A stretch of DNA of 44,764 nucleotides, taken from a virus. Position numbers and translations under genes: made by a program. Under the pieces are notes generated by a model. The model was given only the letters and a program-made list of their open reading frames with translations. It made no database searches and was not told the origin of the DNA. Location of the stretch: the IMG/VR virus record IMGVR_UViG_3300045988_107297. One strand, 5' to 3'. Positions 297 through 32,320 of the stretch are shown piece by piece. The stretch's first letter is position 1, and every line of letters starts with the position of its first letter.

Positions 297-884
297 ATGC
301 CAGCAGCTACTTACAACAGCAAAGTGATTTTTAACGGCGACGTCTTGATGGATCTCACCGGCGATACCGTCACCGCCGATAAATTGCTTGCCGGGGTCAC
401 AGCCCACGGGAAAGACGGTGCGCCCGTTACTGGAACCTGTGACTTCGATGCCGCAACGGGCGACGCCACCGCTACGGCGGCAGAAATTCTGTCTGGGAAA
501 ACCGCATATGTGAAAGGCACAAAAGTTTCCGGCGAAATGCCTAATCGTGGGGCGGTGACCGGGACAATCAGCACCAAGGCCGGGGCCTATACCGTGCCCC
601 AGGGCTACCACGACGGCAGCGGCAAAGTGACCATCGACAGCACCGAACAGGCAAAGCTCATCCCTACCAACATCCGCAAGGGCGTGACCGTGCTTGGGGT
701 CAGCGGTACAATGTCCGGGAGTGAGGGCATGAAGCCTCAAAGCAAGAGCGTAACGCCCAAAGCTACTGCGCAAACGGTGCTGCCGGATACAGGCTATAAC
801 TGCCTGTCACAAGTGGTTGTGGCCGCCATCCCCTACGCGGTGAGCGACAACACATCTGGCGGCAAAACCGTGACCATCGGGTAA
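297..884 (+). CDS. tail fibre / receptor-binding-like protein
   Basis: ORF 288..884; GGAGG at 281-287 favours ATG 297. It has internal repeats of the form LLxGxTAxGxDGxxVTGT. Its N-terminus NSKVIFNGxVLxDLTxDTV is paralogous to ORF 884. Confidence 0.55.
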   Translation: MPAATYNSKVIFNGDVLMDLTGDTVTADKLLAGVTAHGKDGAPVTGTCDFDAATGDATATAAEILSGKTAYVKGTKVSGEMPNRGAVTGTISTKAGAYTVPQGYHDGSGKVTIDSTEQAKLIPTNIRKGVTVLGVSGTMSGSEGMKPQSKSVTPKATAQTVLPDTGYNCLSQVVVAAIPYAVSDNTSGGKTVTIG

Positions 885-1636
885 TGGCTATGGGCAACAG
901 TAAAATCGTTTTTAACGCCAAGGTGCTAATCGACCTGACCAAGGACACCGTGGCGGCGGCGAAGCTGCTGGAAGGGGCCACCGCCCACGGCAAGGACGGC
1001 GAGCAGGTGACCGGCACGATTTTGAACCGGAACACGGTGGGCAAGCATGGGGCTGTTGGTGCATCTACCGCCTTCCCAAGCGTCGCTGTCACACCCGTGG
1101 AGCGAGACACGCAAGCCTACCAAAATACGGACGGCGTGTCTCGGCTCTTTCTGAAGCCCCCGGCGGGCTATTATAGCGGCGAAAGCTATGTGGGCGAGAC
1201 TTTTGCCAAAGTCGCCTCGACCATCGGCCTGAACGACGGGAACCTCTGTGCCGGGAATACGGTGCTGGGCATCACCGGCAGGGGCCACGCCATGGCGATG
1301 TTTGCCGCCGTTGGTGACGGCCGCTGGAGCGGTGGCTCTTACAACCGGCTCAAGCTGGCCTATACGGTGGGCGGTACCTCCGGCTTCGGCGGCTGGGGCT
1401 GTTGGCTCCCGGCGGGCACTTACCGGGCGTGCGGAGCAATCGCTGACCTGACCGGCTGTTATATCGCGGATGCAGGCACCTTGTCCACCCGGATTTACGG
1501 CGCAGAGCGGGAGTATAACAGCTCTCAGTGGGGCGGGCAGGGCACATTTACGCTTAACGGCAGTCAATGGGTTTCCGTCACCAGCGGCAGCAGCAACTAT
1601 AGCGAGTGCGGGGCCGTGGCCATTTACAGAATTTGA
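884..1636 (+). CDS. tail fibre paralogue
   Basis: TAATG overlap with the previous ORF. Residues about 46-134 (NTVG..DGVSRLxLxPPAGxYxGxSYVGETFxKVAS..LCAGNTVLG) are paralogous to 42992..44299. Confidence 0.6.
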   Translation: MAMGNSKIVFNAKVLIDLTKDTVAAAKLLEGATAHGKDGEQVTGTILNRNTVGKHGAVGASTAFPSVAVTPVERDTQAYQNTDGVSRLFLKPPAGYYSGESYVGETFAKVASTIGLNDGNLCAGNTVLGITGRGHAMAMFAAVGDGRWSGGSYNRLKLAYTVGGTSGFGGWGCWLPAGTYRACGAIADLTGCYIADAGTLSTRIYGAEREYNSSQWGGQGTFTLNGSQWVSVTSGSSNYSECGAVAIYRI

Positions 1637-1653
1637 TCGAGAGGATGAGAACT

Positions 1654-1821
1654 ATGACTTACGAGCAAAAGCAAGAAGCCATCAAGGCCCTTGTGTATGG
1701 CGGCACACAAAAGGCAGCCGCCGATGCGGCTGGTGTGCCCGTCTACGCACTGGCCGAAATCACGCAGGCTGAAATCGACGAGGTGCGAGCCGATCTGAAA
1801 GAAATGGGGTGGCTGGATTGA
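1654..1821 (+). CDS. small hypothetical protein, possibly HTH-like
   Basis: Part of ORF 1606..1821. GAGAGG lies 9 nt upstream of ATG 1654. The segment GTQKAAADAAGVPVYAL looks helix-turn-helix-like. Confidence 0.4.
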   Translation: MTYEQKQEAIKALVYGGTQKAAADAAGVPVYALAEITQAEIDEVRADLKEMGWLD

Positions 1822-1823
1822 GC

Positions 1824-2798
1824 ATGATGGAGGGCGTTGACGTATCGAAGTATCAGGGCACCATCGACTGGGCCAAGGTGAAAGCATCCGGCATGGGCTT
1901 TGCGATGGTGCGGCAGGGCTGGATTAACAGCGACGGAAGCATCACAGAGGACCCTTTTTATCGCCAAAACATGGTCGGGGCAAAGGCTGCGGGCCTGCAT
2001 ACGGGCGTGTATCTGTACAGCTATTGCACGAGCGAAACCGCCATGCGAGCGGCTGCAAGCGCCTGTGTCGCCATGTTGGACGGCTTTGTGTGCGATATGC
2101 CCATTGCTCTGGACTTTGAGCACGCCACGCTGTACAAGCGCTTTTCGCGCGCTGTGAACGCGAGCCTCTGCGCGGCGTTTTTGAGCCGCATTGAGGAGCT
2201 GGGGCGCTACTGCATCATGTACACCTACAAGTCTTTCGCTGCGGCCTATCTTGACATGGCCGCGTTGAGCCGCTATGACTTTTGGCTGGCCCACTACACC
2301 GCCCGCACGGACTACACTGGCCCCTATGGGATGTGGCAGTATACCAGCAGCGGAAGCGTCCCGGGCATTTCCGGGCGCGTGGACTGTAACCACGCTTACA
2401 AGGACTATCCGGCGATCATCACCGGCGAAAAGAAGGAGGATACACCCATGAGCGATCTTCTGAAAGTTGGCCCGGTATCGGGCGGCGACCGCAAGACCCT
2501 GGCAGCCCTGGCCGACAGCCTAGGCCTGCCCCACGAGGACGCGGGCGACTATCTCATCATCGGCCCCGCCAGCGCAGGCGACCGGAAGGCCATCGCCGCA
2601 AAGGCCGCCGCTCTGGCGGTGGGCTGCGTGGAGTATACCGCGCCCGAACCGGAACCTGAACCCGAGCCGGAACCCACGCCTGCCCCCACTCCGGCCCCGG
2701 ACAGCGGCAAAGACGACACCGCCGAGCAGCTGGGCCGCATTGAAGCCAAGCTGGACAAGCTGCTCGGTCTGGTGAACCCCGCACTGCTGGAGGGCTGA
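1824..2798 (+). CDS. endolysin, GH25 muramidase with PE/PT linker and C-terminal repeats
   Basis: N-terminus GVDVSKYQGTIDWAKVKASGMGFAMVR is the GH25 signature. PEPEPEPEPEPTPAPTPAP forms a linker. The duplicated VGPVSGGDRKTLAAL / IGPASAGDRKAIAAK segments look like a wall-binding module. Confidence 0.85.
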   Translation: MMEGVDVSKYQGTIDWAKVKASGMGFAMVRQGWINSDGSITEDPFYRQNMVGAKAAGLHTGVYLYSYCTSETAMRAAASACVAMLDGFVCDMPIALDFEHATLYKRFSRAVNASLCAAFLSRIEELGRYCIMYTYKSFAAAYLDMAALSRYDFWLAHYTARTDYTGPYGMWQYTSSGSVPGISGRVDCNHAYKDYPAIITGEKKEDTPMSDLLKVGPVSGGDRKTLAALADSLGLPHEDAGDYLIIGPASAGDRKAIAAKAAALAVGCVEYTAPEPEPEPEPEPTPAPTPAPDSGKDDTAEQLGRIEAKLDKLLGLVNPALLEG

Positions 2799-2799
2799 T

Positions 2800-3051
2800 A
2801 TGCAAGAATGGACGGTGGTTGGCGTTGTTGTTGTGCTTGTAGGGCTGATCGGCTCTGTGAGCGGCCCGCTCATCAAGCTCAACAGCAACATTACAAAACT
2901 GACAGTCGCAGTGGACAACTTCCAGCATGCTTTGGATAAACTGGAAGGAGAAAACCGCGAAAGTCACAAAATTTTTTACAAGCGGCTGGACTGCCACGAC
3001 AAGGAGCTGGCCCAGCATGAGCAGCGCTTGAAGGCGCTAGAGGAGGAATAA
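2800..3051 (+). CDS. membrane-anchored coiled-coil protein (BhlA/XhlA-like holin-associated?)
   Basis: One N-terminal TM segment (VVGVVVVLVGLIGSV) followed by a charged coiled coil. It lies between the endolysin and the holin. Confidence 0.4.
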   Translation: MQEWTVVGVVVVLVGLIGSVSGPLIKLNSNITKLTVAVDNFQHALDKLEGENRESHKIFYKRLDCHDKELAQHEQRLKALEEE

Positions 3052-3053
3052 TC

Positions 3054-3314
3054 ATGGATATTTCGTTCATTTCTGAGTACATGGTTCCCGTTATCGTGGG
3101 CATCTGCCTGTGCGTTGGATACGTCGTCAAGTCGTGGGTGAAGGATGTCGATAACAAATACATCCCCACCATGTGCGCCGTACTGGGTGTGATTCTGGCC
3201 GTGTGGATGCACTGGCCTGCCGTGGACGCTGGTGTGATTTTGTCCGGCCTTGCGTCCGGCCTTGCGTCCACCGGTCTGCACCAGGTGTTTAAGCAGCTGC
3301 TTGGCGGGGAGTGA
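3054..3314 (+). CDS. holin
   Basis: 86 aa with 2-3 TM segments. Motif KYIPxxxxxLGVxL...SGLASGLASTGLHQVFKQLL resembles clostridial phage holins. It is adjacent to the endolysin. Confidence 0.75.
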   Translation: MDISFISEYMVPVIVGICLCVGYVVKSWVKDVDNKYIPTMCAVLGVILAVWMHWPAVDAGVILSGLASGLASTGLHQVFKQLLGGE

Positions 3315-3587
3315 TTGAGTATGGCACATCAAGTGCCTTGGAACAAGATCATTCTCGAAGAGTTTATCCGGCTTGCTATCCTTACGAAGGACGAGGAAGC
3401 GGTAATGCGGACGCGGGTTGCCGGGTGGACACGGGTTGAACAGTCTATGAAGTTGGGTATGTCTCTAGCGAAAGTGGACAAAATCACTGCAAGACTAAAG
3501 AAAAAGTACGATGGTGTGCAGAGATACAGCGTAATTTTGCCGCCCCGCAAAACCAGCACGAAAGAAACGTACATGGATACGCACTAA
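3315..3587 (+). CDS. sigma-70 region-4 / LuxR-like HTH regulator
   Basis: The segment LTKDEEAVMRTRVAGWTRVEQSMKLGMSLAKVDKITARLKKK resembles a sigma region-4 HTH. Confidence 0.45.
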   Translation: MSMAHQVPWNKIILEEFIRLAILTKDEEAVMRTRVAGWTRVEQSMKLGMSLAKVDKITARLKKKYDGVQRYSVILPPRKTSTKETYMDTH

Positions 3588-3717
3588 CTTTCAGGCGAAA
3601 AGCGTATAACAATACGGCTGTAAAAATACGGTTTTACGTCCTTTGTTTGGAGTATGATTATATCAGGGGAGGAAAACGCCTTCCCTGTAAACGAACCAAA
3701 CGAAAGGAGAAAACCGT

Positions 3718-4284
3718 ATGGAAATGACCTATGCATCCAGAGGTGTGGCAAATGCTGGCCTGGCCACTGGCATTGTCGGCGCCGCCCTTGGCACGCTGAA
3801 CGCTGTGGGCGGCCTTGGTGCCATGGCATTGAACGGTGGGCGTGTTGCCGAGTGCAGCGATAACCAGCCTATCAACCGGTACGAGCTCGATCTCGTGCAG
3901 AAGAACGCAAAGCTGGAATCCGACATTGCGCTGCGTGACGCGAACACCTACAATGACCAGAAGACGCTGGAAATGTACAAGTACATTGACGGGCGGCTGC
4001 GTGGCATTGAGGAAGTGCAGGCGGCGCAGGCCGTCCACAACCAGAAAACCGAGGACAGCTTCGTGCTGGCCCGGCAGGACATTGCCGCTGTGCGTGACAG
4101 CCTGACCGAGAAAATCAAGCTGGAAGCCGAGCGCCGGTGCTGCGGTGACAACTCCATCTTGAATTACGTGAACGCCACCTTCTACCCGAAGATGGTTGCG
4201 GACGTGACCACTGGAACCGGCACCACCGCACAGACCCTGTACAACCCGCTGCCTAAATGCGGCGAGTGCTGCAACGGTAACTGA
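3718..4284 (+). CDS. hypothetical protein: Gly/Ala-rich hydrophobic N-terminus, coiled coil, Cys-rich C-terminus
   Basis: RBS GAAAGGAG lies upstream. The N-terminus is GVANAGLATGIVGAALGTLNAVGGLGAMAL. The C-terminus carries RRCCGDN and KCGECCNGN. A hairpin terminator follows. Confidence 0.6.
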   Translation: MEMTYASRGVANAGLATGIVGAALGTLNAVGGLGAMALNGGRVAECSDNQPINRYELDLVQKNAKLESDIALRDANTYNDQKTLEMYKYIDGRLRGIEEVQAAQAVHNQKTEDSFVLARQDIAAVRDSLTEKIKLEAERRCCGDNSILNYVNATFYPKMVADVTTGTGTTAQTLYNPLPKCGECCNGN

Positions 4285-4288
4285 GCCG

Positions 4289-4324
4289 ATGGGGGCGGGG
4301 CTAGGCTTCGCCCCCATTCTCTTT
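4289..4324 (+). terminator. rho-independent terminator or attenuator
   Basis: ATGGGGGCG (4289-4297) pairs with CGCCCCCAT (4309-4317) and is followed by TCTCTTT. Confidence 0.6.
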
Positions 4325-4338
4325 GAAGGAGGATGGTT

Positions 4339-4680
4339 ATGGTTAGCATGGACATGGTACAGCGGGGCATTAACCGCTATATGGAGCAAGAGATCATCAG
4401 CCGACTGCCGGAAGGAAGTCTGGGCCGGTTTGCCGCAAATGCCGCTAAATATGTGTTTGTCGCACGAAGTGGAAACGCCATGAATTCGCTTGCAGAAAAC
4501 CCCATTGCAAAGGCGTTTGGACTGACAGCTGACGGGCAACTGGACATTGACCTAGCGGCAGAGGCGGCGCGGGAGAGCATCCCCGACAACGGTTTGAAGG
4601 TTGACGTGCCGGTGCTGGGCAGGATGACCTTCCACCGTGGAGATGTGGACACACTGCTGCGCATGATTATGGAGGGCTGA
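4339..4680 (+). CDS. hypothetical protein
   Basis: ORF 4333..4680. GAAGGAGG at 4325-4332 favours ATG 4339. Confidence 0.55.
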   Translation: MVSMDMVQRGINRYMEQEIISRLPEGSLGRFAANAAKYVFVARSGNAMNSLAENPIAKAFGLTADGQLDIDLAAEAARESIPDNGLKVDVPVLGRMTFHRGDVDTLLRMIMEG

Positions 4681-4683
4681 GGT

Positions 4684-5253
4684 ATGACCCGAGAAGAAAT
4701 CTTCTCCGCTATATCCGCCCGACAAATCGAAGGCATTATGTTGCACGACCAAATGGCGCAGTGCTTCACGTTCCTGCATCTTGACGGTTACAAGCGGCTG
4801 CAAGAGTTTCGCTTCATGGACGAGGCCGCCGAACATCGAAACATGGTGCGGTTTTACATCGAGCGTTACAACCGCCTGATACCGGGCGCACACGCAAACA
4901 ATCCGGCGATCCTGCCGGAAAGTTGGATGGGCCGAACCCGACTTGAAGTGGACACGGCAACAAAGCGCATGGCCGTGCGGGATATGTTTAAGCGCTGGGT
5001 GAATTGGGAATCCAGCACATTGAGCAGCTTGCAAGCACACGCGCAAATCCTGTACAACAGCGGAGACGTTGTAGGCGCTGACTACATCGGGCGCATGGCG
5101 AAAGATGTGGCAGACGAGTTAAAGACCGCAACCGGCATGATGATTGACTTGGATGCGGTGGACTACGACATGGCCGTGATTCTCGACAGACAGCCAGCGC
5201 TGCACCGAAAGTACAAACACAAGTTGAAGGAAATCGGAGAAGCGTTTTCCTGA
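4684..5253 (+). CDS. hypothetical helical protein (loosely ferritin/Dps-like)
   Basis: RBS GGAGGG lies upstream. There is only a loose resemblance (LHLDGYKRLQEFRFMDEAAEH) to ferritin-like four-helix bundles. Confidence 0.5.
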   Translation: MTREEIFSAISARQIEGIMLHDQMAQCFTFLHLDGYKRLQEFRFMDEAAEHRNMVRFYIERYNRLIPGAHANNPAILPESWMGRTRLEVDTATKRMAVRDMFKRWVNWESSTLSSLQAHAQILYNSGDVVGADYIGRMAKDVADELKTATGMMIDLDAVDYDMAVILDRQPALHRKYKHKLKEIGEAFS

Positions 5254-5257
5254 CAAC

Positions 5258-5290
5258 AAGCTCTGAGGAGAAATCCTTGGAGCTTTTTTA
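5258..5290 (+). terminator. weak rho-independent terminator
   Basis: AAGCTC (5258-5263) pairs with GAGCTT (5280-5285) and runs into TTTTTT. The loop is rather large. Confidence 0.45.
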
Positions 5291-5308
5291 TCTAGAAAGG
5301 ATGGGAAT

Positions 5309-6073
5309 ATGGCAAGAAAGCTTGTAAGCCTGGGTGACTATGAAAAGCAGGCTGCTGCACAAGGCGGCGCTCGAAAAATGTACAACAACAGCGGATGGAG
5401 CGTGGGCAACAACGCGGGGAATGCTGCCTCTGTGCGAAAGACGTACTCCGGAAGCAGCGGCGGTTCTTCGTCTGGCAGATCCTCTTATTCTGCACCTGCC
5501 GTTCAGGCCGCACCCGCTTCCAGTGGCCCCAGCTATGCGGACGCATATGCAGATGCATTGGCCTCTATCATGGCAGAACAGCGGCGACAGCGGGAAGCAG
5601 CGTATCAAAAGGCAGCGGCAGCCCAGAAGGAAAACCTCAGCTTTGCCACAAATCAGCTGACCGACACCACCAATGACGCGCTGAAACAGGCTTACATCAA
5701 CAAAATGCAGACCCTCCGCAACCTGCCCCAGCAGATGAGCGCGCAGGGCTTGAACGGTGGAGCGTCGGAAACCACTCTGGCGAGCATGAATAACAACTAC
5801 GGCAACGCCCGGAACCAGCTGGAAACCGAGCGGTTGAAGCAGCTTGCCAGCCTGCAAAACACCTACCAAAACAACCTTGCACAGCTGGAAGCTCAGCGGG
5901 CCAGCGGCGATGCGGCACAGCTCTCCAACATTGCCCCCACGCTGGCCAACCTTGTGGCCACTAACACCCCTGCAAGCGTGAACATCACGCAGGGAAGCGG
6001 CGGTAACGCTGGCAACGTAAGCGCATGGCTGCGTAAGCTGATGGGTTACGACGACGAGGACTATTACAACTGA
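5309..6073 (+). CDS. low-complexity Ser/Gly/Ala/Gln-rich protein, possible internal virion protein
   Basis: RBS AAAGGATGGG lies upstream. The composition is coiled-coil-like (QLETERLKQLASLQNTYQNNLAQLEAQ). It lies directly upstream of the giant ORF. Confidence 0.5.
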   Translation: MARKLVSLGDYEKQAAAQGGARKMYNNSGWSVGNNAGNAASVRKTYSGSSGGSSSGRSSYSAPAVQAAPASSGPSYADAYADALASIMAEQRRQREAAYQKAAAAQKENLSFATNQLTDTTNDALKQAYINKMQTLRNLPQQMSAQGLNGGASETTLASMNNNYGNARNQLETERLKQLASLQNTYQNNLAQLEAQRASGDAAQLSNIAPTLANLVATNTPASVNITQGSGGNAGNVSAWLRKLMGYDDEDYYN

Positions 6074-6085
6074 TTTCATTCTCCG

Positions 6086-6115
6086 CCCGGCCTGAAACAC
6101 GGCCGGGATTTTTTT
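6086..6115 (+). terminator. rho-independent terminator
   Basis: CCCGGCC (6086-6092) pairs with GGCCGGG (6101-6107), followed by ATTTTTTT. Confidence 0.7.
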
Positions 6116-6132
6116 GAAATAAGGAGGACTCC

Positions 6133-9100
6133 ATGCCCTATTCTGACCAGGAAGCGTTTCTGAACGCCTACCTTAAAAACTATGCAAAGGCCCAACAAAA
6201 CGCCGTGAACAGCGGCAAAACCGGCCTGAGCAGCGCCCGCTACACCGGACAGCAGGCAATGAATGCTGCACCCACAACTCTGCCCGACTATGGCGACATT
6301 GCAGGCAGTTTCACCACCGCCTACACGAAGCAGCTGGCGGCCGTTGAAGCCCAGCGCGAGAAGGAAGCGAAGGCAGCCCAGGCAGCAGCAGAAAAAGAAG
6401 CAAGGGCAGCCGCAAGTGCGGCGAAAAAAGCATCCTCTTCCACCACAAAGAGCAAGAAGCTGAAGAAGGAAGAGCTTAAAGCACTGGATGCAGAGCTGGA
6501 AGAACTGGCCAAAACGCGGGTGGCCCTGCAAGAAAGAAAAGAAACCCAAGATGCGAACACCCGCGAGCGCATCAAGGAGAACGTCGGAGACACTGCCGGT
6601 ATTTCCAGCCTTACAGCCGCAAGCAGAACCTTCGCACCTGAAAGGAAAGGCAGTGCCACAAAGAAAAGCCTTTCGCAACGGATTGTCGCTGGCGTGAAAG
6701 GTTTGGCAAAAGTCCCTTCTGCCGTCAAAGACGGCGTTGTGCAAGGCACTGCGCTGCACAACCGGATGAAGGCCGCGCGTGGTGGAGTGTCTGCCGAAGA
6801 TAGTGTGGATTTAGGCGGCGTCCAAACCCCGCAAGCAACGGCAGCAAAACAAAAATCCAGAACCAAAGCCCGAGCCTCTGTAGCAAAGCAGAACTTCACG
6901 ACACAGGAGCTGGATGCACGTCTGACCGCGACAAACCAGCGTATGCGGGAGCTGCAAAAGCAGGGAAAGACCAAAACTCGGGAATACCGGCAACTGCAAA
7001 ACCAGCATGACACCTATGCAACCGCGTTGGGCGTGGACTCTTTTGCTGGCCGCGCAGGCGCAACCGGACTTGGTGCAGTCTCCGGCTTTGCTGCTGGCTT
7101 GGCGAACATGGGCGATGCCACGGCTCGCGCAATCCGTGGTCAGTCTGCAAGCATGGATATTCCGGAGTATGAGGCAGCATCGGACGACCTGCAAGAAGCC
7201 AACGAGCAGCGGGACGCTCTGATTCAGATGGGCCGGGCCTACACCGACACGCCGAACGGCCCTGTCGCTACGCCTGAATTCCAGCAGGTGCTTGACCGCA
7301 TTGCAAGCGCAAAGGGTGTGCGGGCTGAAAATCAAGTAACCCCCGAGCGCAATCAAGTTGTGAGCAATATGCTGGACTTTGCCCAGAACCAGAACCAGAA
7401 AGCACAGGCGGGCCTTGACAACACCGGCCGGTTTTTGGTGGGCACAATCGGAAGTGTCGCGCAGAACCTTCCTGCCTTTGCAGCAGCGGCGGCCGTGCCA
7501 GAAGCTGCCCCCGTTTTGATTCCCGCCCTCATGGGCGTAAGCGCGGCAGGCAACCGGGAAAACGAGCTGGAACAACGCGGTGTGCCTCTGAATCAGGCTG
7601 TGTTGCGCAGTGGCCTGAGCGGCGCAGTGTCCGCCATTACCAACAAGCTGCCCCTTGAGCAGGGCGCAGAACTCATGGCCGGAAACGGCCCCGGTTTTGT
7701 CCGCGCTATGGCCCGGCAAGCACTGAGCGAAGGCGGGCAGGAAGCCTCTGAGTATGCAGCAGACTACGGCCTCGACGTTTTGGCCGGAGACCCGGATGCA
7801 AACTTCAGCCTTGCCGAACTTGGGCAGCAGGCGCTGGGCGGCGCACTGGGCGGCGCAATCAGCGCGGCCGGAAGCTCTCTCATTGGCAGCGGCATGAATC
7901 GCGCAAGAGAAGCGCTTGGGGCCAACGGGAACGCCCCTATGGACACGGATGTGCAGCAGGCAGAACCGGTATCGCCCGCCCCTGAAAACTCCGTATCCCC
8001 CGAACCTGAATCTGTATCACCCAGTGCTGAAACCGCCACACAGCAGCCGCTGGAAGCCACGCAGGAAGGCATTCCGGAGCTTGGCGTGGTAGCACCCGAT
8101 GCAGCCCCGAAAACTGCCATTGACGTGATTGTGGACGCATACCGCAACGGCACGCTGACAAACAAGCAGATTGACCAGCTGAAACCCGGCGGCGAACTGC
8201 GGCAAGCGTTTGAAGAGGCCACGGGCGTAACACTCCCAGACACCAGCAGCGAGACGCGGAAGGCGTTGAAGGCTGGAATGCAGGAAGAAATTCCCTATCT
8301 GCGGCCTGTTGACAGCGCCGAAAACGCGGGTTATGATGGAACCAATGAAGCCTATACAGGAGGTGCGAGCTATGACGGAACTGGAAGAACGAGCGGAAGT
8401 ATTGCGCAACCGGACGGAGAAGGACGAGAGGGAATTCCAGAATTATTACGCAACCCTGAAAACAGGGGGTGGCAAGGAAGCGGCGCAAATAATGTGGCAG
8501 AGAGGAACTCCGTTGGAGGAAATCAAGTATTACATGGACTTCTGACCGATTCCCCAGAAATGCAAGCAGCCCTTGAACGAAGTGGAGCCACACCCCTTGA
8601 GCTGAGAGACACGACCAGTGACCCTCAGCTCTTTTCATCGGCCCTGGAAGAAGCCCGGCAGAAAAATCCCCATGGCCTAATGGTGAGCCCGAAAACCGTC
8701 GAAGAGCTGAACCAGCCCGGAACCCGCACCTTTATGAGCGCAGACAATATGGCCGGTGCGCTGGTGACGGCGGACGGAGACATTGAAGCGGTGTTCAAGA
8801 ACCCGCAAAGTAAGGCGAAGCAGGCGGCAACCTCTCTTTTGATTACTGCCGTGGAAAACGGTGGCCGCAAGCTGGATTGCTATGGCCTTGATTTAGTAAC
8901 ACAATACAACCGAAGAGGTTTTGAAGCAGTCGCCCGTATCCCGTTCAATGCGGGAGCGGTGGAAGACGGCTGGACATATGGCGCGAAAGATGTTTATGTG
9001 ATGAAGCTGCTCGACGGCGTAACGGCGCAAGACATTGCGGGACGATTACGTATGGACGAAGCTGACGGCGGCTTCCATATGCAGACCGATGCAGAGCTTG

Positions 9101-12100
9101 CCAACCTTCCCGTATTCGACGACTACGACGAGGCGCTGGCATACCGCGACAGTCTGCTCACCACCCCCGCCGAAAGCGGCAGCATTCCAGAACTCATGCC
9201 CACCGCAAACCAGAGTGTGCAAGAGCCTATCCCCACATTGGCTGACCACCCCAACACGGTAGGCGCGGCGCAACGGCAATTTGACCGGCCCGAAGTTGCC
9301 AGCCAGAGCCACATGACCCGCGACACAGACAATGATTACCTGCAACCTCTTGTGCAGAGAGATCAAGGCGGTGAGCAACAGTTTACCCACGAGCGCGTAA
9401 GCAACGCAGACCGAATGAAGATTGCGGCCAACAGCATGGAGACCGAAAGCCGCGACGAGATCGTGTCCCGCTTGACCAGCAAAGAGCAGTGGGACGCAGA
9501 TGACACCGCGCTGGCCGGAAGCGTACTACGCGAGTGGGATTCGGCTTTGGGCGATATGGACAAGAGCGGCGAGGCGTACAAGCAGGCCCTTGCCCAGAAG
9601 ATGAAGTTTACCCAGCGGATTAGTGAATCCAACACCATGAATGCGCAAGCACTGCAAATGACGCAGGAGTTTACCACTCCTGAAACCGCCGTGATGCAGT
9701 CGCAGAAGAGCATTAAGACTGCCGTTGACCGTGTAGCAAATGGCAAAAACAAGCGAAAGTTCGACCAATACAAGGGCGATGTGGAGACGGCCGTTGCAAA
9801 CGCAGAGGATACGGCCACGCAAAAAGCCAATGACGCGGTGCAGAAAGCCATTGAAGCTGTGCAGCAGCAGGCCACAGACACGGATGCACAGCCCAGCAAT
9901 GCGACAAAACGCGGCAAGCGGACAGAAAAAACGCAGGATGAGGCGAACCAGCCCTCTGCCGAAGATGTACTGAGCCGCAAGCTGGCGGCTGCCGTAAAGC
10001 GGCACGTAACGGACGGGAAAGAATCCAGTGTTGAGGACGTTGTACAAAGCGAAATGCTTTCCCAGCTGACCAAGATGGCGACAAGCGACACCGAAAAAGG
10101 TGCACGGCCCCAAAAGCCGAAGCTGACGGTTGAGGAAAAGCTGCAAACCGCGTTGGACAATCAAGAGACATACTCGCGGGTATGGGAAGCGGCAAAGGAA
10201 GCGCTTGCCGAAAGGTACAAAGACAACGCTGATATGAGCAGCCGCCTGCAAGCATTCTTCGATGACGCCGGAGAATCCGGTTTGTACGGAAAAGACACGA
10301 TAAAGCAACTTGTGTCCAAGTACACCAAAGACCAGGGGATTGACTTCAAGGCCCTAGTCAAAAAAAGTCGCGGAGACAAACAGGCTACCCTCCGGGAAAT
10401 TCAGGATCGCATTCAAGACACCTTCGACATGGACGACACGCAAGCCCAACGTATCGCCGAAATGGCCATGAACGAGTATTCCAAAGCATTGTCGGAAGCG
10501 GCGGACGCAAACCTGAAAGCCATCCGGGGCGGGAAAGGCAAAACGAGCAAGTCCACGCACGACCAATTTTTGGAGCTGTTGCGCATGGGCGTTTACGATG
10601 AAGGCGACGTGCAGGCGTATGCTGCATCCAAATTCGGTGTGCAGCCGTTGACCGCCGAACAGTGCCAGCAAATTCTCGACCTTGCAGAGCGGGCGGAACA
10701 GCTCCCCGTGAACAGCCGTGACCGGGTGTTGATGGAAAGTGAGGTAGCAACGATTGCGGCCCAAAATCTGAGCGGCTCTTTCCGCGATGCATGGGACACA
10801 TGGCGCTACACATCCATGTTGCTTAGTGCCCGTACCAACGAAAAAAACATCGGCGGCAACGTGTCGATGGGCCTGAATGCCCGCGCAAAGGACGTTGTTC
10901 TTGCAGCCATGGAGTGGATGATTAACAAAGTTGCCCCTGGAAAGGTTGAACGCACAACGGCGATTGTAACCCCGTTCACCGAGAACGGTCGCGCACTGCT
11001 TGCAGCTTCCGCCAACGATGCCGACTTGAACAGTTATCGTCAGCTTTCCGGCACAAGCGAGCGCATGAATCTGGCGCGGGACATGCAGCGGCACCGCGAA
11101 GCCTTCCGGAGCCTTGCATCCCCTGATAGTAACAACATTGTAACCAAGTTCCTGTCCGCTTTGGACAGCCTAGCTGCAAGGGCAAGCGCGCCACTGGAAG
11201 TCTCCGACTATGAGGGCACTTTTGGTGTATTGGAAGGTCTGCGCGGCATTAACAAAGCCATGGATGCCGCGATTGACTGGATTCAGGATTCTGCTGCGAG
11301 TGGCACAAACAAGGGCGTTCTCGGCGTTGCTGGCCTGAAAAACAACTATGCGTGGTCGTTGGCGCAATACCTCAAAGCAAACGGCGCAGACGCAAGCATT
11401 TTCGACGCGACGGACGCGCAAAGCCTGGCTCTGCTTGACAAGGCCAGAGCACACGCCATCCAACAGGCGTTGATTAACACCTACCATGCGGAGTCCAAAA
11501 CGGCCTCTGCCGTGGCCAAATTCAAGGCCGACTTGCGAGGTTCCGACAACTTTGCATCCCGTGTGCTGGGCGACATCGTGGAAGGCCAGCTGCCCTTTGT
11601 GAAAACGCCCATCAATGTGGCAAAGCAGAGCTTGCAGTATAGCCCGCTGGGCTTCGTGTCTACTGCCGCCGAGGGCGTAAAGGTTGCGCGTGGAACTGGC
11701 GATGTAAACCTTATGCTCGACCATGCGGCGGCTTCTGTCACCGGCAGCGTGTTGTTTGCTCTGGGCGGAATTTTGGCCGAGAAGGGCTTGCTCACCGCTG
11801 GAATTGGGGACGACGAAAAGGACAAGGCAAATCTGGAAGGCCGCCAAGAATACAGCCTCCAGCTGGTGGACGACGACGGGAAGCTGCACAGCTACACCAT
11901 CGACTGGGCCAACGCTGCCGCTATTCCGATGTTTGCCGGAGCAGAGTATGCAAAGCTGGCTGCAAGTGATGGGGCCTCTCTGAATAGCGTTGCGTCCGCG
12001 TCTCAACAAGTGCTTGAGCCTCTGCTGGAAATGTCCTTCTTGCAGGGCTTGAATAACAACCTTGAATCTCTGCGCTACTCCGAGGATCCTTACATTTACG

Positions 12101-12909
12101 GCATGGCGAAACAATCCCTGAGCAGCTATGCAACACAGGGTATTCCAACGCTTGCCGGGCAAGTCGCCAGAAGCATTGACCCCGTGCGGCGCAGTACATA
12201 CAGCGGCACGACCGGCATTGAATCCGACATCGGCTACACGGCAAACAAAATCCGCAACAGAATCCCGTTCCTGTCCGAGACTGGGCAGCCGTACATTGAT
12301 GCATTCGGCGACACCCAGTCGAATACCGGCGGAAGTTTTGCCGGGCGGCTGGCATACAATATGTTCTCCCCCGGCTACTATTCCGAGACGACGGACGACC
12401 CCGTGAAGCAGGGTGTGCTGGATTTGGCCAACAGCTCTGGAGACAACAGCGTAATTCCGGAAGTCGCAGAAAAGAAAGTGTCTTGGACAGTTGACAAGGG
12501 AAAGCACACCTACCAGCTTTCTCCGCAAGAATACACCGACTTTGCAACACAGCAAGGCCAACTGCGCAAGGACATGGCAGAAGCCGTGTTGGATTCCCGC
12601 TACACCGAAGAGCAGCAAGTGGAGCTTATCCCGGAGCTGTACGGCACCGCAGGCAAGATTGCGGCTCTGGACATTGTGCCCGACTTCTCCGTTGGCACCG
12701 AAGAGCGGAAGCGCATTGATATCTACAATCAGTATGGCATTGATGGGCTGATGAACTGGATTGCCTACCGGAAGTATGCGAACACGGACGGCAAGACGGG
12801 CATTAACCAGAGCGAGGCCCGTGCATGGCTGAATGACAGCGACATGAGCGATGCCATGAAGGATGCATTCTGGGCGGCGAGTTCGTCCAACTGGAAATCT
12901 TCTCGATGA
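6133..12909 (+). CDS. giant 2258-aa multi-domain protein (candidate virion-packaged ejection / polyvalent protein)
   Basis: One uninterrupted ORF with RBS AAGGAGG. It has an Ala/Lys/Glu/Gln-rich N-terminus, a hydrophobic stretch (nt about 7424-7560), a GNAT-like looking module (nt about 8620-9020) and a long C-terminal globular region. Confidence 0.8.
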   Translation: MPYSDQEAFLNAYLKNYAKAQQNAVNSGKTGLSSARYTGQQAMNAAPTTLPDYGDIAGSFTTAYTKQLAAVEAQREKEAKAAQAAAEKEARAAASAAKKASSSTTKSKKLKKEELKALDAELEELAKTRVALQERKETQDANTRERIKENVGDTAGISSLTAASRTFAPERKGSATKKSLSQRIVAGVKGLAKVPSAVKDGVVQGTALHNRMKAARGGVSAEDSVDLGGVQTPQATAAKQKSRTKARASVAKQNFTTQELDARLTATNQRMRELQKQGKTKTREYRQLQNQHDTYATALGVDSFAGRAGATGLGAVSGFAAGLANMGDATARAIRGQSASMDIPEYEAASDDLQEANEQRDALIQMGRAYTDTPNGPVATPEFQQVLDRIASAKGVRAENQVTPERNQVVSNMLDFAQNQNQKAQAGLDNTGRFLVGTIGSVAQNLPAFAAAAAVPEAAPVLIPALMGVSAAGNRENELEQRGVPLNQAVLRSGLSGAVSAITNKLPLEQGAELMAGNGPGFVRAMARQALSEGGQEASEYAADYGLDVLAGDPDANFSLAELGQQALGGALGGAISAAGSSLIGSGMNRAREALGANGNAPMDTDVQQAEPVSPAPENSVSPEPESVSPSAETATQQPLEATQEGIPELGVVAPDAAPKTAIDVIVDAYRNGTLTNKQIDQLKPGGELRQAFEEATGVTLPDTSSETRKALKAGMQEEIPYLRPVDSAENAGYDGTNEAYTGGASYDGTGRTSGSIAQPDGEGREGIPELLRNPENRGWQGSGANNVAERNSVGGNQVLHGLLTDSPEMQAALERSGATPLELRDTTSDPQLFSSALEEARQKNPHGLMVSPKTVEELNQPGTRTFMSADNMAGALVTADGDIEAVFKNPQSKAKQAATSLLITAVENGGRKLDCYGLDLVTQYNRRGFEAVARIPFNAGAVEDGWTYGAKDVYVMKLLDGVTAQDIAGRLRMDEADGGFHMQTDAELANLPVFDDYDEALAYRDSLLTTPAESGSIPELMPTANQSVQEPIPTLADHPNTVGAAQRQFDRPEVASQSHMTRDTDNDYLQPLVQRDQGGEQQFTHERVSNADRMKIAANSMETESRDEIVSRLTSKEQWDADDTALAGSVLREWDSALGDMDKSGEAYKQALAQKMKFTQRISESNTMNAQALQMTQEFTTPETAVMQSQKSIKTAVDRVANGKNKRKFDQYKGDVETAVANAEDTATQKANDAVQKAIEAVQQQATDTDAQPSNATKRGKRTEKTQDEANQPSAEDVLSRKLAAAVKRHVTDGKESSVEDVVQSEMLSQLTKMATSDTEKGARPQKPKLTVEEKLQTALDNQETYSRVWEAAKEALAERYKDNADMSSRLQAFFDDAGESGLYGKDTIKQLVSKYTKDQGIDFKALVKKSRGDKQATLREIQDRIQDTFDMDDTQAQRIAEMAMNEYSKALSEAADANLKAIRGGKGKTSKSTHDQFLELLRMGVYDEGDVQAYAASKFGVQPLTAEQCQQILDLAERAEQLPVNSRDRVLMESEVATIAAQNLSGSFRDAWDTWRYTSMLLSARTNEKNIGGNVSMGLNARAKDVVLAAMEWMINKVAPGKVERTTAIVTPFTENGRALLAASANDADLNSYRQLSGTSERMNLARDMQRHREAFRSLASPDSNNIVTKFLSALDSLAARASAPLEVSDYEGTFGVLEGLRGINKAMDAAIDWIQDSAASGTNKGVLGVAGLKNNYAWSLAQYLKANGADASIFDATDAQSLALLDKARAHAIQQALINTYHAESKTASAVAKFKADLRGSDNFASRVLGDIVEGQLPFVKTPINVAKQSLQYSPLGFVSTAAEGVKVARGTGDVNLMLDHAAASVTGSVLFALGGILAEKGLLTAGIGDDEKDKANLEGRQEYSLQLVDDDGKLHSYTIDWANAAAIPMFAGAEYAKLAASDGASLNSVASASQQVLEPLLEMSFLQGLNNNLESLRYSEDPYIYGMAKQSLSSYATQGIPTLAGQVARSIDPVRRSTYSGTTGIESDIGYTANKIRNRIPFLSETGQPYIDAFGDTQSNTGGSFAGRLAYNMFSPGYYSETTDDPVKQGVLDLANSSGDNSVIPEVAEKKVSWTVDKGKHTYQLSPQEYTDFATQQGQLRKDMAEAVLDSRYTEEQQVELIPELYGTAGKIAALDIVPDFSVGTEERKRIDIYNQYGIDGLMNWIAYRKYANTDGKTGINQSEARAWLNDSDMSDAMKDAFWAASSSNWKSSR

Positions 12910-12923
12910 GAAAGGAGCAGCAC

Positions 12924-13049
12924 ATGGACATTGGTAACAACATTCAGTTTGAGCGTATCCGCCGGATCACCGGCTATCTGGTGGGCACAATGGACAAGTG
13001 GAACGACGCTAAGAAGGCAGAAGAACGAGACCGTGTAAAGCACTTATAA
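12924..13049 (+). CDS. stand-alone NrdD-type glycyl-radical domain mini-protein (41 aa)
   Basis: RBS AAAGGAG lies 7 nt upstream of the ATG. The translation is MDIGNNIQFERIRRITGYLVGTMDKWNDAKKAEERDRVKHL. It matches the recalled C-terminus of class III RNR NrdD (RRVCGYLG..FNAGKQEEVKRRVKHL). Confidence 0.65.
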   Translation: MDIGNNIQFERIRRITGYLVGTMDKWNDAKKAEERDRVKHL

Positions 13050-13101
13050 TGCAACAATAGAGTAACAGTTCAACGTAATTGCGCTGAAAAATCGTCAAAA
13101 A

Positions 13102-13152
13102 CCCTGACTTTTAATCAGGGTGTCCGGGGTTCGAATCCCCGATGGCTCACCA
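13102..13152 (+). other. attP core candidate: 3' 51 nt of a tRNA-Lys(UUU) gene
   Basis: CCTGA-CTTTTAA-TCAGG anticodon arm, GTGTC, CGGGG-TTCGAAT-CCCCG T-arm, ATGGCTC-A-CCA. No matching 5' acceptor or D-arm lies upstream. The site is next to the integrase gene. Confidence 0.7.
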
Positions 13153-13156
13153 AAAA

Positions 13157-13196
13157 AGCACCGTGTAACGTTTGTTTACACGGTGCTTTTGTTGTT
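13157..13196. terminator. bidirectional rho-independent terminator
   Basis: Perfect 12-bp stem AGCACCGTGTAA (13157-13168) / TTACACGGTGCT (13176-13187). An A-run lies upstream and a T-rich run downstream. Confidence 0.8.
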
Positions 13197-13264
13197 TCTA
13201 TGAATACAGTTGTGTTCCAATTTCACGCAATTTGGCTCATAATGTAACGGATAGTGTAACAAAT

Positions 13265-14419
13265 TTAAGGGGTTTCGACGATATGTTTGACTTCATCCGC
13301 CAGCTTCGCGAATTCTTCCATCGCGGCAGAAATGTGAGAATCCTGTGAAATGTAATAATCGTCCGTAACGGAACTGCCGATCTGGTGGCCGATGGCAAGT
13401 TGCAATGCCTCTTTATCCACCTTCGCTTTGGTCGCAATGCTTGCGTATGTGTGGCGGCAAGAGTAAGGCACATAACGATGCGGGTTTTGTACACCAATTT
13501 CTTCCAGCCCGGAGTAAAATTCCCGCACCCGGAAGTTTCGGGTGTTCCACGCGCTTCCGGTCGGGCTGCGAAAGATTTTCTGCCCGGGCTTTGCGGCGTT
13601 GTAGAAGCGCATAAAAACGTCCCACGTGATGGGGTCGAGAACGATGTACCGGTTCTTCCCGGCGGCGGTTTTGGAGCCTTCCAACCAGATGCCGTGGCGC
13701 TCAAAGTCAATGCAATCGTTGCGAGCAATCTTTGCAAGGTCAGCCATGCGGCAGCCGCTCAAACAAAGAAACCAAATGATTCCCGGAACCCGCTCATGCC
13801 GGTGCTTGTAAAGCAAACGCAAATCTTCGTCATCAAACGGCACCCGCTGGCCCTTCACCTCGGCGGTTAGCTTCAACCCCTCGGAGTAGTCCGTCTGGTG
13901 GATTCCGTGCTGCACACACCACATACAGAGCTTGTGCATAAGAGAGCGCAACTTGTGCTGGTGGGACTTTGATTTGCCTTCATCCTCGGCCCGGAACAAG
14001 ACAGCCTCCAGCGTTTCTTTCCGCACGTTGATTGCCTTTATCTTGTGCAGCTCCTTCATGTAACGCCATGCGTACTCCACGTCTTTCAAGTATTTTTCCG
14101 AGTTTTGCCGGAAAGCGCGGTCTGAGATCACCGCGTCATACACCTGTTGCATGGTGTAGTTGCGATACTCAAGATCAGGCTCTTGCTCCGAGGCCGCGAG
14201 AATGGCCCTCTCCGCGTCTTGTTTGGTTTTGTAGCAACCGATATAGGCTCCCCTGTAAACGGCCTTGTAGGGCGAACTGCGCCCTTGCAGACGCGCAATG
14301 GAGCCGTTCCCCTTTGCCCTTCTTGCCTTTGGCCGTGTGGTTGCCGTCTGCCGTTTGCCACACCACGGGCAAAACAGCGCCCCTTCTGGGATGTCTCTTG
14401 CACATCTCACACACGTCAT
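13265..14419 (-). CDS. int: tyrosine recombinase / integrase with N-terminal zinc ribbon
   Basis: C-terminal HRCRHTYAS...LAIGHQIGSSVTDDYY is the R..HxxR..Y catalytic signature. The N-terminus carries CVRCARDIPEGALFCPWCG. GAGGTG lies 6 nt upstream of ATG 14419. Confidence 0.9.
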   Translation of the reverse strand: MTCVRCARDIPEGALFCPWCGKRQTATTRPKARRAKGNGSIARLQGRSSPYKAVYRGAYIGCYKTKQDAERAILAASEQEPDLEYRNYTMQQVYDAVISDRAFRQNSEKYLKDVEYAWRYMKELHKIKAINVRKETLEAVLFRAEDEGKSKSHQHKLRSLMHKLCMWCVQHGIHQTDYSEGLKLTAEVKGQRVPFDDEDLRLLYKHRHERVPGIIWFLCLSGCRMADLAKIARNDCIDFERHGIWLEGSKTAAGKNRYIVLDPITWDVFMRFYNAAKPGQKIFRSPTGSAWNTRNFRVREFYSGLEEIGVQNPHRYVPYSCRHTYASIATKAKVDKEALQLAIGHQIGSSVTDDYYISQDSHISAAMEEFAKLADEVKHIVETP

Positions 14420-14429
14420 GGCTTGCACC

Positions 14430-15008
14430 TCATTTCATGGTGTACTCGTTCTTTTTCATCTGGGCGGCTTGCCTGCCTGCATCGTGGGCGCTGTGCAGGT
14501 TTTGCAGGTTCGGTTTTGCTTTCTCCGGCTCCACCAAGTCGCCGGTGATGGATTCCAGCTCGTAGTTGTCAATTATCAGCCTGCACACGGCTGTCCGGCT
14601 TGCCATGCTGCAATGGGCGTTTGCTACGTACTCGTCCAGCATGGACGGCCATTCACTGCCGTGCGCGCCGAAGATCAGGAATGCCAGCTTGTCCACCTCG
14701 CCCGGCGGGCAATCAGCCAGGTATTTAAACAGCCCGTTCCGCCTCTGCTCCACATCCGCGTGGCTGCCGTCAAAGTCGGTGTACAACTCCGGGTGGGCCA
14801 GGCGGAGAACATCCGGGAACCAATTCAAACTCAACGCTCTGTACCAGTTTATAAACTCTTCCAGTGTGGGCGGCTTCTCCCCGTGCTCCCATCTCTGCAC
14901 CGTGCGCGGGCTGACGTGCAGCAGCGCGGCAAGCGTCTCTTGTGCAACGCCCGACCGTTCCCTTGCCTGTGCCATGAGTGCCGCAATCCTCTTTGCATCA
15001 TACAACAT
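14430..15008 (-). CDS. XRE-family HTH protein with unknown C-terminal domain
   Basis: N-terminal HTH: SGVAQETLAALLHVSPRTVQRWEHGEKPPT. RBS GGAGGA. Its stop abuts the int start, so the two form an operon. Confidence 0.7.
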   Translation of the reverse strand: MLYDAKRIAALMAQARERSGVAQETLAALLHVSPRTVQRWEHGEKPPTLEEFINWYRALSLNWFPDVLRLAHPELYTDFDGSHADVEQRRNGLFKYLADCPPGEVDKLAFLIFGAHGSEWPSMLDEYVANAHCSMASRTAVCRLIIDNYELESITGDLVEPEKAKPNLQNLHSAHDAGRQAAQMKKNEYTMK

Positions 15009-29749: not shown

Positions 29750-29827
29750 GGCTATGTCCTCCTTTGGCCTGCCTCATCAGTACCGGGCGGCCATCCCCGG
29801 CAGACGGCCCGAAGGCCGTTTCGGCTG

Positions 29828-30181: not shown

Positions 30182-30204
30182 GGTTATTCCCTCCTTCTTT
30201 GTGT

Positions 30205-30279
30205 ACCCATGAGCGCCCACCCCTTACGGGGTGGCCGGGCTTGCACCGGCGGCGCGTGAGCGTCGGCCTTGCGGGTCAG
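30205..30279 (-). ncRNA. 75-nt structured intercistronic element, copy A
   Basis: About 80% identical to 32246..32320. Three hairpins are preserved by compensatory changes. The strand assignment is assumed from the operon direction. Confidence 0.5.
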
Positions 30280-32210: not shown

Positions 32211-32245
32211 GGTGTAGCCTCCTTGTAGATGTGCTAGGGCTTTCA

Positions 32246-32320
32246 ACCCATGAGCGCCCGCCCATCTGGGCGGCTGGACTTGCACCAGCGGCGGCGGATG
32301 CCGTCGGCCTTGCGGGTCAG
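32246..32320 (-). ncRNA. 75-nt structured intercistronic element, copy B
   Basis: Paralogue of 30205..30279, with the same length and the same position relative to the flanking ORFs. Confidence 0.5.

Follow-up and report, generated by a model that had tools for sequence, protein, structure and literature searches.

The 44,764-nucleotide (nt) stretch of viral DNA recorded in IMG/VR as IMGVR_UViG_3300045988_107297, referred to here as the window, contains a gene of 41 codons whose predicted product resembles only the extreme C-terminus of NrdD, the anaerobic (class III) ribonucleotide reductase (RNR), and the locus raises the question of what a phage might do with so small a piece of so large an enzyme. 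The original prediction, made from the DNA letters alone, took the gene for a stand-alone NrdD glycyl-radical domain acting as a spare part for NrdD damaged by oxygen. The first part of this proposal is borne out by homology, synteny, selection and the lack of nrdD and nrdG in the phage, whereas the second, a part intended for an oxygen-cleaved fused NrdD, is disfavored by the genomic context, namely the natively split NrdD of many Clostridia. The gene is considered here, with a probability of roughly 0.68, to be a copy, carried by the phage, of the small subunit with the glycyl-radical segment in a class III RNR that is naturally split, serving the NrdD of the host. At the level of sequence, this reading draws on homology, autonomy of the gene, conservation under selection, the split architecture of the host enzyme and recurrence of the gene in unrelated phages, all of which are demonstrated below.

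The mini-gene lies on the plus strand (12924..13049), with an ATG at 12924 and a TAA ending at 13049, and encodes MDIGNNIQFERIRRITGYLVGTMDKWNDAKKAEERDRVKHL, in which a match to the Pfam family NRDD, an alignment to the structure 8p23 and conservation in 27 loci delineate a predicted glycine loop, short helix and C-terminal tail. These 27 loci, the phage family set, comprise the window and 26 related loci collected from metagenomes and IMG/VR. The gene begins 14 nt past the stop codon of a giant gene of 2258 codons (6133-12909) and forms its own translation unit, as the small open reading frames (ORFs) of the hosts likewise do, with a Shine-Dalgarno (SD) sequence and ATG, in-frame stops upstream and no barrel fused to it. 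The SD sequence, AAAGGAG (12911..12917, plus strand, read from the sequence), is present as first reported, although its distance to the ATG is 6 nt and not 7 nt; all 27 phage loci retain both AAGGAG and the ATG at 12924. A 47-residue reading from the ATG at 12906, which overlaps the stop codon of the giant gene as ATGA, was rejected, since most relatives have ATA or GTA at this codon or, further on in the same frame, a TAG or TAA stop, and the poor conservation of the upstream ATG marks the 41-residue version as the conserved reading.

Residues 5-40 of the mini-protein match profile positions 529-562 of the 562 positions of the Pfam NRDD family (PF13597; E=2.3e-9, 36.9 bits, cut-off 26.2), and in a Pfam scan at E≤1 this family was the only one found, with no match to PF01228 (Gly_radical). 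Three NCBIfam NrdD equivalogs (TIGR02487, NF005497, and NF011292) are matched at just their last ∼35 profile positions, and the scores of 57.2, 46.8, and 36.9 bits stay below the whole-protein cut-offs of 736, 764, and 326. Judged by its domains, the mini-protein is thus a fragment-sized NrdD homologue and not an NrdD enzyme, lacking the ATP-cone, the barrel, the catalytic cysteine loop and the zinc ribbon. The best match in the PDB by phmmer is Prevotella copri NrdD (PcNrdD; 8p23, chain residues 707-739, E=1e-7), and the similarity to the extreme C-terminus of NrdD that the original prediction had noted holds in the Pfam, NCBIfam and PDB comparisons and lies far beyond chance.

The glycyl-radical domain of PcNrdD occupies residues 676-739; its zinc site is followed by a buried loop carrying Gly711, a short helix (723-730) and finally a tail (PMC11226230). 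As aligned, the phage ORF covers the glycine loop, helix and tail of this domain, without the zinc site. The predicted RxxGY motif is present in the ORF as R13-R14-I15-T16-G17-Y18, with G17 aligned to the radical glycine: in 8p23, the chain residues opposite G17 and Y18 are 715 and 716, which would correspond to Gly711 (the radical residue) and Tyr712 of the 739-residue PcNrdD if the 743-residue chain carries four extra N-terminal residues. Neither column varies in alignment A1 or A2 or among 27 homologues, and the codons for the glycine predicted to bear the radical and for the conserved tyrosine of the R-I-T-G-Y motif, assigned by alignment to PcNrdD, are located at 12972..12977 on the plus strand.

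Conservation of the mini-gene within the phage family is that expected of a protein-coding gene under selection. The 27 loci contain 19 DNA haplotypes of the ORF that encode only six proteins, and within the 33-codon core (codons 9-41) 11 codons vary, 10 of them only synonymously and one by an I/V exchange, while three of the six variable codons among codons 1-8 alter the residue. Pooled Nei-Gojobori estimates over a 32-codon core within the family give a pS of 0.174 and a pN of 0.003, values that are descriptive since the pairs are not independent; the selection statistics are based on 33 codons. The exact 41-residue protein is indexed in 1063 sample blocks. The mini-ORF is accordingly kept in synteny across all 27 loci under strong purifying selection, as had been anticipated of a genuine gene, and its pattern of variation is that of a translated gene under strong constraint, unless something else imitates such a gene very well.

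The closest relatives of the mini-protein reveal an architecture that the original prediction had not considered. At least 7990 matches were obtained among 5.8 billion proteins, and the best 120 are all proteins of 39-60 residues, some encoded on phage-sized contigs and others on megabase chromosomes. One of these, P0100, is a 48-residue chromosomal protein labeled 'MULTISPECIES Eubacteriales' that is present in 1966 sample blocks of the index. Its gene belongs to a chromosomal operon composed of nrdD (761 residues, with ATP-cone and NRDD domains), a spacer, the 48-residue ORF and nrdG, an arrangement seen in Allofournierella loci L001-L006 and L013, where the 761-residue NrdD ends in CPRCGRRSGE…FCGCE before its stop codon. 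The C-terminus of this NrdD, DPVCGYVGVIGDVCPRCGRRSGEALSPEKLDELRKKYPGVPTFCGCE, is devoid of the RxxGY motif, and the 48-residue ORF that follows has its own AAAGGAGG and ATG. Of the 746 positions of NF005497, 1-711 are accounted for by the large protein and 709-743 by the small one; the two tile the family without duplication, and the host enzyme is therefore split and not duplicated.

A census of the 80 best-matching species-representative genomes found a split nrdD in at least 45, with nrdG immediately following in 41 of the 45 and often overlapping the small ORF by 7 nt. A further 14 genomes encode a fused NrdD in which FERIRRITGY is found 6-9 residues past the zinc ribbon, 11 contain a short ORF without nrdD-large within 6 kb, and nine were located at contig edges. 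Genomes with the split form are labeled Allofournierella, Faecousia, Acutalibacter, Pygmaiobacter, Neglecta, Oscillospiraceae, Lachnospiraceae and others, and the split form dominates among the Oscillospiraceae genomes of the census. The host small genes encode 44-60 residues, each with an SD sequence upstream, and are separated from the large gene by spacers of 6 to 490 nt.

An intron in the host spacer was excluded, given that Rfam returned nothing at E≤1 for the Allofournierella spacer, that other spacers are as short as 6-16 nt, and that the small ORFs have SD sequences of their own. A split intein is implausible, the tail of the large protein (∼28 residues) and the N-terminus of the peptide (8-20 variable residues) being judged too short. 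An 84-nt tandem repeat of 1.9 copies in the Allofournierella spacer (L001 7667-7828) explains the spacer lengths of 255-360 nt among strains. The split NrdD-large proteins share a tail of ∼28 residues following the zinc ribbon (GE.I..E...EL.K.YP..P.F.G.E; L001 7562-7639, and 40+ loci) that the fused NrdDs lack, which indicates that the split form is an evolved lineage and not a product of decay; this tail could be a docking element for the small subunit. In one Clostridia metagenome-assembled genome (L022), two small glycyl-radical ORFs, at 2941-3075 (44 residues) and 3410-3556 (48 residues), stand in tandem between nrdD-large and nrdG.

No description of a split class III NrdD or of an NrdD spare part was found in the literature searched, which covered part of the journals. 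Databases name the small ORFs 'anaerobic ribonucleoside-triphosphate reductase' or 'hypothetical', and the first of these names is also carried by the GenBank virome entries DAG90699.1 and DAK05883.1, which hold a copy of P0012, a close variant within the phage family that is 95% identical to the peptide of the window.

The phage peptide and the host small subunits are direct homologues. Over 32 core residues (FERI...VKH) the phage protein is 100% identical to the small subunit of Allofournierella, and the corresponding DNA differs by 12 synonymous and no non-synonymous changes (pS ∼0.58). The guanine-plus-cytosine (GC) content of the mini-gene is 48%, compared with 56% for the phage genome and 62-64% for the hosts; the host of the phage is a member of the Oscillospiraceae with a GC content of about 64%. 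Protein identity combined with synonymous divergence and the offset in GC content implies that the gene has long resided in the phage while selection kept it at the host sequence, as expected if the peptide must fit the NrdD-large and NrdG of the host.

The mini-gene is also found in phages outside the family, as the original prediction had suggested that a search might reveal, with at least four further stand-alone contexts in addition to the 26 related loci. IMG/VR contains 482 relatives, and most of the best 80, which were inspected, are full nrdD genes (640-662 residues), usually with nrdG; ten others belong to the family of the window, six combine nrdD-large with a small ORF of ∼98 residues and nrdG, and two (L140 and L171) contain a short ORF with neither partner nearby. 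The small gene follows a tail-fibre gene in L140 and adjoins a dATP/dGTP diphosphohydrolase-like gene and DUF2800 in L171; for P0096 (L183-185) its neighbors are early genes, including those for a DUF5906 primase, Tad3 and MazG, and for P0065 (L186-188) between a GH25 lysin and tail genes. No nrdD-large or nrdG was found in the flanks of these contexts within the 5-8 kb inspected on each side. The GenBank phage collection, searched as DNA and protein, yielded only short metagenomic fragments, a single Eggerthella phage, and phages of Clostridioides difficile in which nrdD-nrdG is complete.

Two observations from these searches concern other arrangements of the same segment. In the six IMG/VR loci with a ∼98-residue ORF (L104, L109, L148, L150, L154, L172; ∼4815-5150), a second type of split is seen, in which nrdD-large ends in CPCCGRTEH.EIKEK.RR.K and is followed after ∼33 nt by the ∼98-residue ORF, composed of an extension and the glycyl-radical segment, and then by nrdG. 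The Eggerthella phage EL753P1 (L189, OP172808.1, 626-4087) encodes an NrdD of 960 residues with a LAGLIDADG intein-like insert that ends without a glycyl-radical segment; its small ORF at 3873-4001, annotated as hypothetical, reads GFERIRRI up to a stop codon and continues in another frame as TTGYLTGSADRWNDAKK, with a 5-nt insertion exactly at the radical motif that reflects either a mutation or an error in sequencing.

Of the parts of the enzyme, the phage supplies only this peptide. The window is a complete circular phage genome of 44,645 bp, with 119 nt identical at both ends, and encodes a terminase, capsid, GH25 lysin, DnaB helicase and integrase. No nrdD catalytic gene and no nrdG were found in this complete genome by tblastn with the host NrdD catalytic subunit and NrdG, even at E≤10, and both NrdD-large and NrdG must therefore come from the host. 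In the proposed mechanism, host NrdG would abstract a hydrogen atom from Gly17 of the phage peptide, whose glycine loop would insert into the barrel of the host NrdD-large beside the catalytic cysteine and provide the radical store for ribonucleotide reduction. The glycyl-radical domain of NrdD is highly mobile and leaves the barrel for activation (PMC11226230). Oxygen cleaves the glycyl-radical chain at the radical glycine, and the small proteins GrcA (YfiD) and T4 Y06I restore pyruvate formate-lyase (PFL) in trans (PMC13450708). Oxygen attack on the radical would destroy the phage-type peptide, which would also be the least costly part of the enzyme to make anew, so that extra phage-made copies would sustain or raise deoxynucleoside triphosphate (dNTP) synthesis wherever the radical subunit is limiting, as during phage DNA synthesis or upon oxygen exposure. 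This would take place either late in infection, with the mini-gene as the final one in the late-strand unit, or in the lysogen, where it lies proximal to attR. The analogy to GrcA would then hold in spirit.

Several points weigh against this interpretation. Expression of the peptide, its activation by NrdG, its binding to NrdD-large and a physiological benefit are inferred only. A promoter scan of positions 12000-14700 found no promoter-like site, including between the giant gene and the mini-gene; none was found directly upstream of the mini-gene, which makes co-transcription of the two genes probable. AlphaFold2, given the peptide alone with an alignment of 27 sequences, predicts one long helix with a predicted local distance difference test (pLDDT) score of 87 and no glycine finger, although such a model is uninformative on the bound state. 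The phage protein has eight residues before FERI, compared with about 10-20 in the host small subunits, where this region is variable too, and by analogy the shorter N-terminus may matter, as the N-terminal region of GrcA helps radical installation, which is lowered by truncation (PMC13450708). The C-termini of fused NrdDs in related Clostridia are nearly as similar as the split ones (30-31 of 32 residues identical to the phage core), so that sequence cannot tell the type of partner. Contigs fetched via the host HisRS show an empty attB and no nrd locus, and the other phage lineages with a stand-alone gene may carry nrdD-large beyond the ±5 to 8 kb inspected.

Of the alternatives, the one that survives best is a strict spare part of the GrcA type, in which the host NrdD is fused and the phage peptide replaces its C-terminal piece after oxygen cleavage, an explanation that is unlikely here but has real points in its favor. 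Precedent exists for PFL in GrcA and T4 Y06I (PMC13450708), and fused NrdDs do exist in related Clostridia, with the near identity of their C-termini just mentioned. Stand-alone proteins of ∼91-97 residues (94-131-codon frames), in which an N-terminal extension of ∼55 residues (…DGEYADLNY.F.HVP) is fused to the same NrdD glycyl-radical segment, also occur away from nrd genes in Anaerovoracaceae (L051 5854-6147, from Zhenpiania hominis BX12, and L033, L041, L049, L060, L074, L078, L082, L087, L089), with neither nrdD nor nrdG found within 6 kb; these unlinked proteins are possibly true GrcA-like spare parts for NrdD. The neighbors of the ∼97-residue gene in Zhenpiania encode a glycosyltransferase, CorA and GluRS. 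For the phage peptide, the matter hinges on the type of nrdD in its host. Its closest relatives are nevertheless overwhelmingly separate small subunits, as the lengths of the best 120 matches attest, and the split form is dominant among Oscillospiraceae genomes. A cleaved fused NrdD would moreover retain the ∼10-25 residues from the zinc ribbon to the glycine, which would clash with the N-terminal half of the peptide unless displaced.

A doubtful second alternative, rated below the spare part, is that the peptide is an inhibitory mimic that occupies NrdD-large or titrates NrdG without catalysis, for example to deprive superinfecting phages of dNTPs or to regulate the growth of a lysogenic host. 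Its position in the moron region beside attR is compatible with such a role, as is its retention together with the giant gene in a degraded prophage, a fate common to protective cargo, and an N-terminus shorter than that of the host subunits recalls the GrcA truncation that lowers radical installation (PMC13450708). Loss of the glycine or sequence divergence would, however, be expected of an inhibitor, whereas the phage peptide keeps all residues invariant in the host subunits, including Gly17 and Tyr18, and its core is identical to that of a functional-looking host protein. The N-terminal region is variable and short in some host-type copies as well, and in other phages the gene has replication and nucleotide-metabolism genes as neighbors.

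It is very improbable that the ORF is non-functional debris, either a scar of host nrdD 3′ DNA at an integration site or what is left of an nrdD-nrdG module that the phage has otherwise lost. The idea draws on the location of the gene, ∼50 nt from attP with the integrase adjacent, and on the complete nrdD-nrdG modules carried by many phages. The attP core of the window is a 3′ fragment of tRNA-Lys(UUU) reaching from the anticodon arm to CCA (13102..13152, plus strand), located outside the gene and identified from Rfam, ARAGORN and the relatives; the Rfam tRNA match is sub-threshold (22.9 bits), with the 3′ half aligned and the 5′ half broken, and ARAGORN found no complete tRNA at 13102-13152. 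The gene order in all family loci is giant gene, mini-ORF, att and then usually int, and the core varies in type among the 27 loci: most have tRNA-Arg(ACG), placed where the window has its tRNA-Lys fragment, seven share the tRNA-Lys(UUU) of the window, and two have a third variant.

Integrated copies clarify the site further. L173 and L179 have a complete tRNA-Arg at attL (407-483) and a 3′ fragment after the mini-ORF at attR, followed by host genes, and the intervening DNA (400-10220) is a degraded prophage of ∼9.7 kb with int, a helix-turn-helix repressor, two small genes, the giant gene and the mini-gene. Insertion took place in a tRNA-Arg(ACG) between a ferredoxin gene and asnA of an Oscillospiraceae genome of ∼64% GC, and the empty attB is found in uninfected host contigs L190, L196, and L199 (∼6165-6244) as an intact tRNA-Arg between the same two genes. 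L100 represents an attR junction of the tRNA-Lys type, in which a fruK-like gene adjoins the tRNA-Lys. The giant gene is intact (2200 codons) beside the mini-gene in this chromosomal remnant, and its survival suggests that it is useful to the host. The integrase and repressor genes are gone in L176 (10127-10560) and L180 (10127-10480) and the mini-ORF is still intact; both are probable virulent deletion derivatives and retain the att fragment, which is decayed in L180.

The constancy of the ORF across three core types and in variants without integrase places it in phage-arm DNA beside the core and not in the core itself. An att scar of host nrdD 3′ DNA, which the original prediction had named as a possible refutation, is ruled out by the identification of the core as a neighboring tRNA fragment and by the observed attL, attR and empty attB. 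Debris of either kind is contradicted by the signs of selection (19 haplotypes, in which 10 of the 11 variable core codons are synonymous) and by the invariant SD and ATG, and the small gene in hosts precedes nrdG and not a tRNA, with further copies in unrelated phage contexts.

The last alternative, in which the peptide is the radical subunit of the neighboring 2258-residue protein within a new phage glycyl-radical enzyme, might appeal to their 14-nt adjacency in every family member, their joint survival in the prophage remnant and the absence of recognizable domains in the giant protein, but is hardly credible for a giant protein without similarity to NrdD or any PDB sequence, a peptide core identical to the host NrdD small subunit, flanks examined in other phages with the peptide that show no large unannotated gene adjoining it, and a phage genome that encodes no activase.

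The surroundings of the mini-gene complete the description of the locus. The giant gene (6133..12909, plus strand) is syntenic in all family loci and sits in the moron region that separates the lysis genes from attP; its product has no Pfam, PADLOC or PDB sequence match, the single match being to phrog_2563 (function not assigned) over residues 829-959. A conserved 26-nt spacer, TGCAACAATAGAGTAACAGTTCAACG (13050..13075, plus strand), connects the stop codon of the mini-gene to the att region; it is identical in 17 of the 27 loci and near-identical in the rest, is conserved whichever type of att core follows, and is possibly an arm-binding site of the integrase. A hairpin terminator (13154..13190, plus strand) closes both the unit of giant gene and mini-gene and the convergent gene for a tyrosine integrase beside attP (13265..14428, minus strand; PF00589, E=1.8e-7; phrog_1 integrase, E=2.3e-27). 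Elsewhere in the window, the minus strand contains three ribozymes within 2.6 kb (29763-29826, 30200-30279, and 32241-32320; 64, 85.8, and 78.3 bits), one type II hammerhead and two twister-sister, all well above the Rfam gathering scores.

The nearest known systems are GrcA (YfiD) of E. coli and Y06I of phage T4, each a small stand-alone protein that is essentially a glycyl-radical segment, the latter providing a phage-encoded example. By analogy, the phage peptide would be expected, as these proteins are, to be activated by the cognate radical S-adenosylmethionine activase and to complement a barrel in trans. GrcA, however, is homologous to the C-terminus of PFL (Pfam Gly_radical) and comprises ∼127 residues, whereas the phage peptide is of the NrdD type and has 41. 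GrcA also serves a full-length PFL after oxygen loss, while here the NrdD of related bacteria never had the segment fused, which would make the peptide a constitutive subunit and not merely an emergency replacement. According to a 2026 review, spare-part proteins are known only for formate lyases and are yet to be determined for other glycyl-radical enzymes (PMC13450708).

Among RNRs, the fused NrdDs of E. coli, T4, Thermotoga maritima and P. copri share with the peptide the last ∼34 residues, with the RxxGY motif, short helix and tail. Phage nrdD-nrdG modules are a precedent for RNR as a phage metabolic gene, although the phage of the window encodes neither the catalytic part nor NrdG. The Clostridia small ORFs (e.g., WP_394980142.1, 48 residues) are SD-led, with a core 100% identical to that of the phage and the same invariant residues, and differ in belonging to a chromosomal operon with nrdD-large and nrdG and in an N-terminus longer by 4-12 residues, the phage copy being unlinked. 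The class II RNR of Pseudomonas aeruginosa, NrdJa/NrdJb, likewise has its C-terminal module as a separate polypeptide encoded just downstream (PMC9669993). That enzyme differs in its adenosylcobalamin cofactor and in that the separated part bears a zinc finger and redox cysteines and not the radical. We know of no phage that carries an NrdJb-type piece alone. The arrangement proposed for class III would, as read from the sequences, combine two known kinds of system, autonomous glycyl-radical proteins and split RNRs.

A broader model, to which slightly better than even odds are given, is that a large clade of gut Clostridia uses a two-polypeptide class III RNR whose radical resides on a replaceable peptide of ∼45 residues charged by NrdG, that phages carry the gene for this peptide alone to take over or sustain dNTP synthesis, and that the unlinked ∼97-residue forms are true GrcA-like spare parts. 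The locus already offers an abundant and concrete spare-part candidate for RNR, an enzyme essential to DNA synthesis in strict anaerobes. If true, this would be the first plug-in radical part known for an anaerobic ribonucleotide reductase, extending the spare-part principle from PFL to RNR, and the radical element could be made, labeled, mutated and exchanged apart from the 85-kDa barrel, which would aid the study of NrdG activation and radical transfer. The mini-gene would also rank among the smallest auxiliary metabolic genes of phages, in a very common gut phage, where annotation calls it a full reductase or hypothetical. For gut commensals, such an enzyme suggests a cheap form of oxygen tolerance, in which only a 5-kDa peptide would have to be remade.

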